The notes beneath the pieces were generated by a model, which was not told where the DNA came from, ran no database searches, and saw only the letters and a program-made list of their open reading frames with translations. A stretch of 9,451 bases of DNA from positions 1 to 9,451 of the forward strand of contig JAQTOB010000014.1 in NCBI GenBank assembly GCA_028713575.1, read 5' to 3'. The DNA comes from Patescibacteria group bacterium. GTDB taxonomy: Bacteria > Patescibacteriota > Patescibacteriia > UBA2591 > UBA6264. A program made the position numbers and the translations under genes. The stretch's first letter is position 1. Each line of letters starts with the position of its first letter. This document shows, one piece after another, positions 4,931-6,386 of the stretch.

Positions 4931-5326
4931 TTATTTAATATTTAAAAGAATGGTTTTTTCATTTATTATTCCATCTTCAACGATAATTTGTTCCGGCTCA
5001 GGCATTCTCAAATTTTTTGGAAATGTATTTTGATTAAAATAAAGAAAATAACTGCCGGGCTTAACGTTAAACTCCGCTACCCCGTTTTGATCGGTAATGA
5101 CCACTCCTCCTGCCGGCGGTTGACCCGGTTGCTGGGCCAAATCAATTTCTAAATTCGGTACCACGACATTATTATTTTCCATTTTTGCCACAACGATAAG
5201 TTGCGCTTCACCACGAATACTGTTTAATTTTTCTGCAGAAAAACTTGAATTAAAAGGAAATATATTTCCCACAATATAGCCAAAAATTAAAGCAAAAATA
5301 AGAATAATCCATATAATATTTTTCAT
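4931..5326 (-). CDS. Secreted/membrane-anchored protein with a carboxypeptidase-regulatory-like beta-sandwich signature, 131 aa
   Basis: N-terminal hydrophobic helix: IIWIILIFALIFGYIVG. TDQNGVAEFNVKPGSYFLYF parallels the motif in the neighbouring ORF 4308..4841. Confidence 0.65.
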   Translation of the reverse strand: MKNIIWIILIFALIFGYIVGNIFPFNSSFSAEKLNSIRGEAQLIVVAKMENNNVVVPNLEIDLAQQPGQPPAGGVVITDQNGVAEFNVKPGSYFLYFNQNTFPKNLRMPEPEQIIVEDGIINEKTILLNIK

Positions 5327-5360: not shown

Positions 5361-5450
5361 TGGCGGAGAGGGCGGGATTCGAACCCGCGATACCGTTTCC
5401 GGTATACGTGCTTTCCAGGCACGCCCTTTCGGCCGCTCAGGCACCTCTCC
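5361..5450 (-). tRNA. tRNA-Ser (anticodon GGA), 90 nt, long variable arm, CCA encoded
   Basis: The reverse complement is GGAGAGG-TG-CCTGAGCGGCCGAAAGG-G-CGTGC-CTGGAAA-GCACG-TATACCGGAAACGGTATC-GCGGG-TTCGAAT-CCCGC-CCTCTCC-G-CCA. It has the class II variable arm expected for Ser. Confidence 0.9.
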
Positions 5451-5735
5451 AAAATTACTTTTTGCCAATTTTTTCAAAAAGAACTGATAATTGTTGTTTT
5501 AAAAATCTTTTACCGTCGCTGGTTTTTAAAAACTTTTCACGGCGCAAAGCATCCTGCTTTAAAAAATATGCCTCATAGTGTATTAACTTCAATGGCCTTC
5601 GTTTAATTGTAGACCTAACTTTTCCTTCGCAATGTTCTCTCAGCCGCCTTTTTAAATTTTTTGTGAAGCCTGTGTAGATTTGATTGTTGTTCAGTAATAA
5701 AATATAAATATAATACATTTTATTATGTAAATTAT
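5451..5735 (-). mobile_element. Putative tRNA-Ser-associated GIY-YIG cassette between the truncated and intact tRNA-Ser copies
   Basis: The ORF plus short AT-rich flanks (17 nt upstream, 4 nt downstream) is the only sequence separating tRNA-Ser nt 1-76 (upstream copy) from the intact gene. Mobility is inferred. Confidence 0.4.
5455..5718 (-). CDS. Minimal GIY-YIG (URI-domain, COG2827/UPF0213-like) nuclease, 87 aa
   Basis: ATG at 5718 and TAA at 5457-5455. Motifs are YYIYIL...YTGFT, RLREH and [18 protein letters not shown]. Hand alignment gives roughly 35-40 percent identity to ORF 106..351. The stop codon lies only 4 nt (TTTT) from tRNA-Ser position 1. Confidence 0.8.
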
Positions 5736-5740
5736 GGATT

Positions 5741-5827
5741 CGCCCCGAGATGAACTCGGGGCGCTACGGGTTAATCCCGTGTTAGCGCCCCGAGATGAAC
5801 TCGGGGCGCTACGGGTTAATCCCGTAG
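5741..5827. repeat. Tandem 45/42-nt repeat, each unit carrying two hairpins (cgccccgag-atgaa-ctcggggcg and ctacggg-ttaat-cccgtag), inserted in the T-loop of the truncated tRNA-Ser
   Basis: Unit 1 is 5741-5785 and unit 2 is 5786-5827. They differ only by 3 extra nt (cccgtGTTag vs cccgtag). The stems are 9 bp and 7 bp and perfect. GC is about 64 percent against an AT-rich background. Confidence 0.9.
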
Positions 5828-5882
5828 CGAACCCGCGATACCGTTTCCGGTATACGTGCTTTCCAGGCACGCCCTTTCGGCC

Positions 5883-5922
5883 CCTGCCTGCCGGCAGGCA
5901 GGCCTGCCTGCCGGCAGGCAGG
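5883..5922. repeat. Two tandem copies of the 20-nt perfect palindrome cctgcctgccggcaggcagg, inserted in the D-loop of the truncated tRNA-Ser
   Basis: 5883-5902 and 5903-5922 are identical. Each is its own reverse complement and 80 percent GC. The insertion lies exactly between tRNA nt 16 and 17 by comparison with the intact gene. Confidence 0.92.
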
Positions 5923-5942
5923 GCTCAGGCACCTCTCCACAC

Positions 5943-5957
5943 CTCGCTTTAAGCGAG
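5943..5957. other. Small hairpin (ctcgc-tttaa-gcgag) 4 nt upstream of the truncated tRNA-Ser copy
   Basis: A 5-bp stem seen directly. Function unknown; it could be a leader structure or a transcript 5' end. Confidence 0.4.
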
Positions 5958-5960
5958 TAA

Positions 5961-5988
5961 ATTCTAAACTCTAAGCTCCAAATTCCAA
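5961..5988 (-). promoter_or_regulatory. Weak promoter candidate (TTGGAA-16 nt-TAGAAT) upstream of the tRNA-Ser fragment
   Basis: On the minus strand the -35 is at 5988-5983 and the -10 at 5966-5961. Both hexamers fall inside repeated AAATTCYAAA motifs. The alternative TTGCCT-16-TATAAT at 6090-6063 is also possible. Specificity is low in AT-rich DNA. Confidence 0.25.
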
Positions 5989-6095
5989 ATAATATCTAAA
6001 TCCAAAATTCTAAATAAAAAACTAAAATATAAAAACCAGAATTAGAATAAAATTATAAAAATATTATAGCAAAATAATAAACAAAGGCAAGAAAA

Positions 6096-6125: not shown

Positions 6126-6386
6126 TTAATTCAGGATAAATACATATCCATATATACGGATATATATATGTCCCTCAGGGGCAAGAATCGCTGTTCCTGC
6201 AAAAGGAACAGGCCTTTCCTTCCCCTCGCTGTTTCCGACGCGAACGTCAGAACAGCAAATATTCTTTACTACTATACCATCTTCTCGACGGTGTAGTAAA
6301 ATTTCTTCATTCTTTGCCAGCCATTGATTGGCCGGCATTCCTTTAATCTTCTTCCTCTTTGGTTGAAGATCAAAAATTCTCCCCAT
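6126..6386 (-). CDS. Hypothetical protein, 86 aa, no family recognised
   Basis: ATG at 6386 is preceded by AATAAGGAGGTTAA (consensus SD). It has its own promoter candidate and a strong terminator. GC is locally higher than the surroundings. I recognise no motif. Confidence 0.6.
   Translation of the reverse strand: MGRIFDLQPKRKKIKGMPANQWLAKNEEILLHRREDGIVVKNICCSDVRVGNSEGKERPVPFAGTAILAPEGHIYIRIYGYVFILN

Follow-up and report, generated by a model that had tools for sequence, protein, structure and literature searches.

In a complete 9,451-bp NCBI contig from a Patescibacteria metagenome-assembled genome (MAG), hereafter referred to as the window, a small GIY-YIG nuclease gene lies between a disrupted and an intact copy of the gene for tRNA-Ser(GGA). 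Our analysis suggests, with a probability of roughly 60%, that this locus is one copy of a widespread selfish homing-type element that lives in bacterial tRNA genes; any single step of the mechanism proposed below carries much less weight than this overall picture. The unit would comprise a stand-alone Slx1-like GIY-YIG gene, a cognate double hairpin, and a replacement portion of the invaded tRNA. The hairpins would be placed exactly at a universally conserved tRNA motif (TCG|AA, mostly within the T-loop sequence GGTTCG|AATCC), and insertion would leave behind one complete tRNA as well as a displaced, hairpin-disrupted remnant.

The window is AT-rich, and all genes in its open reading frame (ORF) listing are encoded on the minus strand. 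Read along this strand, the locus starts with the upstream leader of the tRNA remnant (5988–5943), which includes a promoter-like sequence (TTGGAA-16-TAGAAT, 5988–5961, from a consensus scan only) and a small hairpin (5957–5943), followed by GTGT. Sequence inspection and alignment then revealed a copy of tRNA-Ser nucleotides (nt) 1–16 (5938–5923), a 40-nt D-loop insert (5922–5883, between nt 16 and 17) in which the perfect 20-nt palindrome CCTGCCTGCCGGCAGGCAGG occurs twice in tandem, and a copy of nt 17–70 that is identical to the intact gene (5882–5829; repeat search and alignment). An 87-nt hairpin insert (5828–5742) separates the latter from nt 71–76 (GAATCC, 5741–5736), the T-loop/T-stem stretch with which the remnant ends. 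An AT-rich leader of 17 nt (5735–5719; 10–60 nt in homologous loci) extends from there to the ATG of the 87-aa GIY-YIG ORF (5718–5455), which encodes a Slx1/UPF0213-like catalytic core only, and TTTT separates the ORF from the intact, functional 90-nt tRNA-Ser(GGA) with its encoded CCA (5450–5361; identified by ARAGORN, with a tRNA-like end in Rfam). All coordinates and the order of parts between 5957 and 5361 that had been put forward in an earlier reading of the sequence alone (the original prediction) hold on the minus strand. Furthermore, with its inserts removed, the upstream copy equals nt 1–76 of the intact gene at 76 of 76 positions, as had been claimed, and neither ARAGORN nor Rfam called a tRNA in it, in line with the proposal of one intact tRNA and a fragment that cannot fold as a tRNA.

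The 87-nt insert was resolved by repeat search into two tandem modules of approximately 45 nt with two hairpins each (CTACGGG-ATTAA-CCCGTAG CG CCCCGAG-TTCAT-CTCGGGG CG), which share 40 nt at 100% identity and are sited at GGTTCG|AATCC of the T-loop. The same module type was found in six homologous loci (L003, L013, L023, L026, L041, and L081). As single-stranded DNA, the hairpin region folds with −88 kcal/mol compared to −43.7 ± 3.3 kcal/mol for shuffled sequences (z = −13.6). No Rfam family matched this region, and no Intron_gpI match was obtained in the window even at E ≤ 1; since the same Rfam search recovered a group I intron in another locus (L211, see below), the method works. In agreement with the original prediction, neither an integrase nor any other recombinase was found among the window ORFs (ORF list and Pfam).

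An assembly artefact does not underlie the arrangement in the window: the fragment, the ORF, and the start of the intact tRNA are spanned by two ENA assemblies obtained independently from other samples (L001 and L002), which settles a concern that had been raised together with the original prediction. L002 is 99.9% identical to the window over 855 nt, and L001 aligns in two pieces (99.8% and 100% identity), with a single 45-nt module in place of two. The tRNA-ORF layout was also found in contigs of a long-read MAG (L011). It should be noted that the module thus shows a copy-number polymorphism, with one copy in L001 and two copies in L002 and the window (5742–5828), between near-identical strains from different samples.

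Recurrence of the layout was assessed in 80 genome loci encoding relatives of the 87-aa ORF, with 780 other ORFs from the same loci serving as controls. A tRNA gene on the same strand starts between −60 and +100 nt from the end of the ORF match in 52 of the 80 loci compared to 16 of the 780 controls (2%), and a tRNA on the same strand ends within 70 nt before the ATG in 18 of the 80 loci compared to 8 of the 780 controls (1%). Most loci carry a partial copy of the adjoining tRNA, so that the enrichment next to tRNA genes with partial copies, which had been anticipated, is confirmed. The 500 nt upstream of the ORF usually hold an exact copy of the first 18–69 nt of the downstream tRNA; exact matches in the control regions are mostly 6–9 nt long and reach 10–19 nt in about 10 loci. 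Hundreds of uncultured bacteria share the layout, which was found at more than 15 tRNA species, including tRNAs for Ser (4 anticodons), Gln, Arg, Tyr, Lys, Asn, Pro, Thr, Leu, Gly, Glu, and Cys, and in all classified loci the ORF is encoded on the tRNA strand. Many of the loci are located at contig ends.

Two layouts can be distinguished. In class 1, to which the window belongs, the first p nt of the tRNA are followed by the hairpins, 4–6 further nt of tRNA, the leader, the ORF, and the intact tRNA. Class 2 (at least 10 loci) is the mirror image, in which the intact tRNA is followed by the ORF, 5–8 nt of tRNA (GGTTCG), the hairpins, and the tRNA from position p+1 to its 3′ end. In both classes, the hairpins always lie within the non-functional tRNA copy, and in 33 of 48 related units the tRNA copy runs just 4–6 nt beyond them. 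Moreover, units occur in arrays: three 394-nt units, the second and third of which are identical, precede a single tRNA-Gln in L011, three 80-nt units lacking the ORF follow tRNA-Ala in L163, and further arrays are present in L069 and L192. In eight class 1 loci, a further hairpin pair follows the intact tRNA at a distance of no more than 110 nt, and in the two that were inspected (L004 and L005) this pair lies in a 3′ remnant. These two loci, whose ORFs are 96% identical, also differ in structure, as a hairpin-bearing remnant of tRNA-Ser(GCT) is located between tRNA-Ser(TGA) and the ORF in only one of them; in both loci, the two tRNAs are flanked on their outer sides by remnants that lack the ORF, and the loci represent a rearrangement hot spot in a Ser-Ser tRNA pair. 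We also considered whether the duplicated stretch stops where the mature tRNA does, as might be expected of an RNA intermediate, and rejected this as a rule: 4 nt or less of the leader are shared in 36 of 53 copies, but about 13–17 nt of the native leader are duplicated in L011, and other copies share 8–27 nt.

A hairpin pair lies next to the ORF in nearly every locus and consists of GC-rich hairpins of approximately 18 nt with CG after each, as in GGTTCG|CCCTGTCATTCGACAGGG CG CCATGTCGGATGACGTGG CG|AATCC, the second hairpin being of the reverse-complement type of the first. Under a strict definition, a pair was located within 110 nt upstream of the ATG in 39 of the 80 loci and directly after the ORF in 12, with more found by inspection; its place within the non-functional copy is the T-loop or, for tRNA-Ser(CGA), the anticodon loop (CTCG|AAAAC). 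The pair is inverted and flanked by CG...CG in 42 of 58 cases, CG also occurs internally, and the unit includes tRNA sequence. We then scanned metagenome contigs with the hairpin-pair pattern alone, independently of the ORF. This revealed 107 distinct pairs, 32 of which are accompanied by both ORF and tRNA (19 in class 1 and 13 in class 2 layout), while 51 lack the ORF and lie beside an intact tRNA; 22 of the remaining 24 are without an intact tRNA within 450 nt, and some of these derive from contig ends. The nearest tRNA is at a median distance of 44 nt from the hairpin doublet, and 63 of 72 strict doublets in 410 kb are within 450 nt of a tRNA. For the 90 doublets that could be oriented by tRNA or ORF, the flanks G T T C G | ... 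| A N T C C (G53 T T C G57 | A58 N T C C in tRNA numbering) are conserved in 76–84 cases per position, which points to the centre of the palindromic T-loop sequence TTCGAA as the target. The hairpin junction therefore lies in a highly conserved sequence of an essential gene, as is expected of homing.

While the placement of the hairpins is fixed, their stems vary. At least 12 stem variants were observed, and in the unbiased scan set the variable positions are complementary in 95% of cases compared to 46% for shuffled partners. Double changes were seen in 12 of 14 pairs, a count for which the hairpins had been pre-selected for pairing, so that the former comparison is the unbiased test. The two hairpins of one pair never share a stem. 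G-T pairs are the rarer type among stem mismatches (4 vs 20), which fits pairing in DNA better than pairing in RNA. The module is kept between orthologous loci with compensatory changes and is thus a conserved, structurally constrained part of the element. The hairpin inserts described in the original prediction are therefore real, but they are not incidental decay, since the module is conserved and placed at TCG|AA in the T-loop. A derivation of the stems from the local T-stem was also considered and rejected, as no relation was seen. In loci whose T-loop reads TTCA|AA (L018, L068, L078, and partly L028), the module has the form CA-hairpin-TG-hairpin-CA, and in these 3–4 cases the two bases between the hairpins are complementary to those of the target, as though bases of the target were part of the stems.

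The window contains a second element, which was not part of the original finding. On the minus strand between 412 and 20, 4 nt of leader (412–409) and a copy of tRNA-Asn nt 1–12 (408–397; repeat search) are followed by a double hairpin of another type (TCCGCC-GAA-GGCGGA at 396–382 and CCAGCC-TCT-GGCTGG at 381–367), an 81-aa GIY-YIG ORF (351–106; PF01541, E = 9e-18) with 40% identity to the first ORF, and an intact tRNA-Asn(GTT) (96–20; ARAGORN, and 69 bits for the Rfam tRNA model). Two such elements are hence present within 9.4 kb. The hairpins of the second element are placed after nt 12 of tRNA-Asn (..GTAGCT|CAG..), and the same hairpin type and AGCT/AGCY target were found in L206, L209, L211, and L214. 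In this second ORF family, the hairpins follow the forms TCCGCC-RAA-GGCGGA and CCAGCC-TYT-GGCTGG and are located after AGCT/AGCY in the D-arm or the anticodon stem. Each ORF family therefore has its own hairpin type and its own target, TCG|AA for the first and AGCT| for the second. In L211, the anticodon loop of the downstream tRNA-Asn additionally holds a group I intron (1524–1778; RF00028, 93 bits), so that two different mobile elements occupy one tRNA gene; the interruption by the intron explains why ARAGORN calls no tRNA there.

The identification of both window ORFs as GIY-YIG proteins is well supported, with scores of 61.7 and 64.7 bits against PF01541 (cut-off 22.6) and, for the 87-aa ORF that had been predicted to be such a nuclease, E = 8e-17. 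The residues Y5, Y15, G17, R25, H29, E49, and E61 are invariant in an alignment of 30 sequences and, by analogy with the motif tyrosines (GIY and YIG), the arginine, and the metal-binding glutamate of the superfamily, appear to be of catalytic type. The two proteins comprise 87 and 81 aa; the single-sequence Pfam match stops at residue 68, and the family alignment covers all 87 aa. When the family profile was compared to the PDB, only 1YWL and 1ZG2 matched (about 1e-13), which are the structures of the UPF0213 proteins EF2693 of Enterococcus faecalis and BH0048 of Bacillus halodurans, respectively. The AlphaFold model of the 87-aa protein is confident throughout (pLDDT 93), and a Foldseek search with it ranked 1ZG2 and 1YWL first, followed by eukaryotic Slx1 entries including Slx1 on 5′-flap DNA, with I-TevI only at rank 13 (probability 0.23). 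On the basis of profile and predicted fold, the protein is placed in the Slx1/UPF0213 clade, nearer to UPF0213 and Slx1 than to I-TevI or UvrC. Bacterial members of the Slx1-like clade are described as stand-alone minimal domains of unknown function, and some Slx1-like proteins in bacteria are fused to or adjoin tRNA methyltransferases (PMC1564403). While the original prediction of a bare catalytic core thus holds insofar as no DNA-binding domain is present, this is typical of the clade, whose bacterial members normally stand alone, and does not represent a reduced enzyme of the I-TevI type.

At the level of sequence evolution, dN/dS (the ratio of nonsynonymous to synonymous substitution rates) is 0.07 between the 87-aa ORF of the window and that of L003 and ranges from 0.05 to 0.14 in close orthologous pairs. 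The family comprises 6,028 clusters at 50% identity (E ≤ 1e-3), and a search of 2.9 million viral contigs gave only 1 relative. No NCBIfam model attained its cut-off for these proteins, PADLOC returned just a marginal partial match, and PHROGs gave a weak match to "homing endonuclease" for the second ORF (106–351) only; a phage or defence origin was therefore rejected. Many family entries in databases carry 20–60 additional N-terminal residues that include VRPVIRQGATSDDVANP (P0028, P0052, P0066, and P0103 among them). This peptide corresponds to the translation of GGTTCG, the hairpin pair, and AATCC, which indicates that gene callers read through the hairpin module.

A comparison of the two tRNA copies provides information about their origin. 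In 22 of 49 upstream copies, the sequence differs from the working tRNA in the anticodon stem, and in at least 5 loci these differences are compensatory, leaving the remnant with an alternative but fully paired stem. As for the 3′ remnants, 12 of 38 are identical to the working tRNA, and the others are 60–95% identical and still tRNA-like; L138 and L139 carry reciprocal variants of tRNA-Arg(GCG). Since a dead copy is unable to evolve compensatory pairs, remnant and working tRNA of such loci descend from different functional alleles. Such a different origin is seen at other loci, and the two tRNA-Ser copies of the window are identical. The same argument, comparing native and inserted C-termini, showed horizontal transfer of the gene ends inserted with mobile ORFs in fungal mitochondria (PMC3630166). 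Furthermore, the partner tRNA changes among closely related ORFs, and both mirror layouts occur among them. Together, the recurrence of the layout, the mirror layout, and the remnants from different alleles argue for the original suggestion of an insertion that split a tRNA gene and supplied a replacement 5′ portion.

From these observations, a mechanism for the proposed element can be outlined. In the layout of the window, the displaced piece would be the native 5′ part of the tRNA gene together with its promoter, and in the mirror layout it would be the native 3′ part. The ORF would lack a promoter of its own and would be read from the tRNA promoter through the remnant, with the mRNA being parted from the tRNA by normal tRNA end-processing. 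Co-transcription is inferred from the shared strand, the tight spacing, and a consensus scan that detected no promoter-like site on the minus strand between the remnant and the intact tRNA; in L214, the ORF stop even lies inside the tRNA. The site at 5988–5961 is likely the native tRNA promoter, which would drive remnant, ORF, and tRNA, and the same scan placed a stronger promoter-like site at 6090–6063. The nuclease may cut naive tRNA genes at the conserved motif, or alternatively at a branched structure formed by the hairpins. An occupied allele would act as the template for repair of the break, its remnant and intact tRNA providing the two homology arms, so that the whole unit is copied. 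The hairpin pair would mark and block the junction, which would otherwise recreate a second target, and is probably the cis site of the nuclease. ORF-less units would represent non-autonomous derivatives, and tandem arrays could form when the intact copy is cut again and again, or by unequal exchange. A more specific formulation is held only tentatively, at somewhat less than even odds: the nuclease and its own double hairpin, acting as a branched or cruciform cis site that is not read by sequence, would form a new class of bacterial mobile elements that copy themselves into the T-loop (TTCG|AA) and the D-arm (AGCT) and always rebuild a working tRNA.

Several observations weigh against a selfish homing-type element. 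The comparison of empty and occupied tRNA-Ser sites in relatives, which had been proposed alongside the original prediction, yielded no empty site, and the neighbours are not syntenic, as homologs of the gene downstream of tRNA-Ser (4931–5326) are found on non-syntenic contigs. An all-against-all comparison of about 200 loci detected large insertions or deletions in near-identical contigs (L110/L134 and L135/L185), which correspond to unrelated repeats and not to the element; among close relatives, the variation observed was limited to the copy number of units and hairpin modules, and there were no syntenic relatives of the site. No recent jump was found either, as the most similar ORFs at different tRNAs share at most 79% DNA identity. 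Typical homing endonuclease genes decay after fixation. By comparison, strong purifying selection acts on the ORF, which has been retained at orthologous tRNAs across a dS of 0.4–1.4, and this departure from typical homing genes makes a benefit to the host possible. Moreover, the working tRNA keeps an unchanged T-loop, and if this is the cut site, homing offers no explanation of why the host copy would be immune. With 87 aa and no DNA-binding domain, the protein is also a poor lone candidate for sequence-specific recognition, and simple homing does not account for the constant 4–7 nt of tRNA that separate the hairpins from the ORF side. Finally, with 1 relative in 2.9 million viral contigs no transfer vector is evident, and nuclease activity is not known to have been measured for any member of the Slx1/UPF0213-like clade.

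These points call for a consideration of other explanations. Two independent parasites could co-occur, namely GC-rich palindromic mini-elements and a freestanding homing gene, with the hairpins standing outside the nuclease mechanism. The mini-elements, similar to REP sequences, miniature inverted-repeat transposable elements, or mitochondrial GC clusters, would target sites centred on CG and persist only where the tRNA copy is dispensable, while cutting and repair by the homing endonuclease would duplicate tRNA genes. This is in line with the excess of ORF-less over ORF-linked hairpin units (51 vs 32), the existence of several hairpin families, including CCTGCCTGCCGGCAGGCAGG, which also occurs away from recognisable tRNA remnants, the use of two hairpin loop types by similar ORFs of the main family, and single hairpins scattered at other positions of remnants. 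However, it leaves the fixed place of the pair next to the ORF (39 of 80 upstream and 12 after it, by the strict definition) and the proximity of 63 of 72 strict doublets to a tRNA (within 450 nt) to coincidence. It likewise does not account for a distant second ORF family with its own hairpin type and target or for the end of the tRNA duplication being coupled to the hairpin site at a distance of 4–7 nt, and we regard two unlinked parasites as unlikely.

The strong selection on the ORF could alternatively reflect a domesticated module that benefits the host, in which a co-transcribed nuclease acts on tRNA genes or transcripts in repair, quality control, or processing. In this case, the duplications would be old and immobile, and the remnant with its hairpins would serve, as a structured untranslated region at the 5′ or 3′ end, to stabilise or regulate the mRNA. 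Besides the low dN/dS (0.05–0.14) and the retention at orthologous tRNAs over large synonymous divergence, the presence of the ORF in very small genomes of the Candidate Phyla Radiation (CPR), and even twice within 9.4 kb, speaks for such a role, as do the conservation of the hairpins with compensatory changes, the fusion or proximity of Slx1-like bacterial proteins to tRNA methyltransferases (PMC1564403), and the near absence of the family from viral contigs. It is difficult to reconcile, however, with the switching of partner tRNAs and the occurrence of both mirror layouts among closely related ORFs, with ORF-less units and tandem arrays, and with remnants that stem from other alleles. Furthermore, the rarity of G-T pairs in the stems (4 vs 20) indicates pairing of DNA rather than RNA, and the module copy number varies between near-identical strains. 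We therefore consider domestication improbable as an explanation of the locus.

Considerably more remote is a toxin-decoy pair, in which the nuclease would attack the T-arms of tRNAs at the RNA level and the transcribed hairpins would neutralise it, as in RNA-antitoxin systems. Hairpin loops that contain the T-loop sequences TTCGA or TCGAAT would suit a decoy, as would hairpins that are always transcriptionally linked to the ORF. This does not sit well with hairpins that are physically built into partial copies of tRNA genes at an exact position of the DNA, with most hairpin units lacking the ORF, or with the lack of a PADLOC match of note, and to our knowledge GIY-YIG enzymes are DNA nucleases. 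Finally, although duplicated tRNA sequence could mislead short-read assemblers and tRNA genes are classic integration sites, an assembly artefact or attachment sites left behind by an integrase-type island can be dismissed as refuted as far as the data go, given the agreement of three independent assemblies, the recurrence in contigs of a long-read MAG (L011), the lack of an integrase or other recombinase in the window, and a duplicate that represents the 5′ portion from tRNA nt 1, where integrase islands duplicate the 3′ end.

Returning to the proposed homing-type element, its closest conceptual precedent are the mobile ORFs (mORFs) of fungal mitochondria (atp6 in Allomyces macrogynus; atp6, atp9, cox2, and nad3 in Glomus), which carry a replacement gene end (PMC3630166). 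Both combine an endonuclease ORF (LAGLIDADG or GIY-YIG in mORFs) in an essential gene with a copy of the displaced portion (PMC3630166), both leave the gene functional and the native end as an unexpressed remnant, and in both the two portions may differ through horizontal transfer. The mirror layout (tRNA, ORF, native 3′ remnant) corresponds exactly to the order in mORFs. Unlike in mORFs, the setting here is a bacterial chromosome, mostly of Patescibacteria, and the target is an RNA gene with both 5′- and 3′-replacing layouts; a minimal Slx1-like domain, a conserved double hairpin at the junction, and abundant ORF-less units and arrays are further differences. T4 SegB is similarly a GIY-YIG gene among tRNA genes and cuts the tRNA gene region of a related phage, reportedly leaving mostly 2-nt 3′ ends (PMC2330249). 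Such ends would fit the 2-nt CG repeat around the hairpin pair. In contrast to the window locus, SegB is I-TevI-like with a DNA-binding part, is not known to be accompanied by a partial tRNA duplication or a hairpin module, and is phage-borne, spreading by co-conversion during co-infection.

Integrase islands and prophages also target tRNA genes and restore the tRNA by a carried copy of the displaced portion, but they depend on a recombinase of the tyrosine or serine type, and the short direct repeat that they create is a copy of the 3′ end, whereas here no recombinase is present, the 5′ portion is replaced (in the window layout), and the units span 0.1–0.4 kb. REP/REPIN-RAYT systems and IS200/IS605 elements resemble the element in that short GC-rich inverted hairpin pairs are linked to one small nuclease gene, non-autonomous units outnumber this gene, and the stem structure rather than its sequence is kept. 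However, these systems rely on HUH Y1 transposases, are not confined to tRNA genes, and do not involve partial gene duplications; Pfam assigned the GIY-YIG domain alone to the window ORF, which thus does not qualify as an HUH Y1 transposase. Mobile GC-rich hairpins that sometimes lie inside genes of AT-rich genomes are further known as mitochondrial GC clusters or double-hairpin elements from yeast, Allomyces, and sponges (PMC4478555, PMC2800124). Neither a dedicated nuclease nor a defined tRNA-motif target is known for these elements. UPF0213 proteins such as EF2693 and BH0048 belong to the same clade by sequence and fold and share the minimal domain, and a link to tRNA has been suspected from gene fusions (PMC1564403). 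In the literature searched, no function, target, or mobile-element context of UPF0213 proteins was found described.

The original prediction had further stated that no described cellular system with the fragment-ORF-tRNA layout was known. Indeed, we did not find it described in full-text literature, the coverage of which is incomplete, so that this absence is no proof, but fungal mORFs represent a close conceptual precedent (PMC3630166). The replacement-end strategy (fungal mitochondria), the regeneration of tRNAs (integrase islands), and hairpins tied to a nuclease gene (REP-RAYT) are each already known. The element nevertheless appears to be undescribed, as none of the compared systems unites a minimal Slx1-like nuclease, a cognate double hairpin, universal tRNA motifs as targets, 5′ and 3′ layouts, and mini-units.

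If the proposed element is confirmed, this would provide a first function for UPF0213 proteins and a biological role for a large family of minimal nucleases of unknown function. The tRNA remnants, ORF-less hairpin units, and arrays in CPR genomes would then be products of one system, a recombinase-free parasite of tRNA genes that is common in the CPR, Cloacimonadota, Lentisphaerota, and Kiritimatiellota and that constitutes a bacterial counterpart of the mitochondrial strategy of combining an endonuclease ORF with a replacement gene end. It would also explain contig breaks at tRNA genes, false N-terminal extensions of ORFs, and partial tRNA hits in the annotation of MAGs. Moreover, a nuclease of about 85 aa, paired with a hairpin module of 40 nt and a universal target of 11 nt, would be a compact system and, if its specificity is real, a useful tool.

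A few additional repeats were observed. The palindrome CCTGCCTGCCGGCAGGCAGG from the D-loop insert also occurs in four unrelated contigs (L031:1558, L060:5980, L171:4174, and L187:147); in L187, its neighbour is a hairpin pair next to tRNA-Gln, and in the other contigs no tRNA context is obvious. The palindrome seems to represent a repeat family of its own. In L110 (4630–5010), three tandem repeats of approximately 100 nt with GC-rich, hairpin-like ends were found, which correspond to a short stretch in the 96% identical L134 (12100–12230) and are unrelated to tRNA genes. Within the window, an 86-aa ORF without a Pfam match (6126–6386) is located between the gene for a PEP-utilising enzyme and the tRNA-Ser remnant. 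A stretch inside this ORF (6314–6340) is 74% identical to the hairpin region of the second element (364–390) and could be a decayed hairpin unit, and the ORF itself may be spurious.

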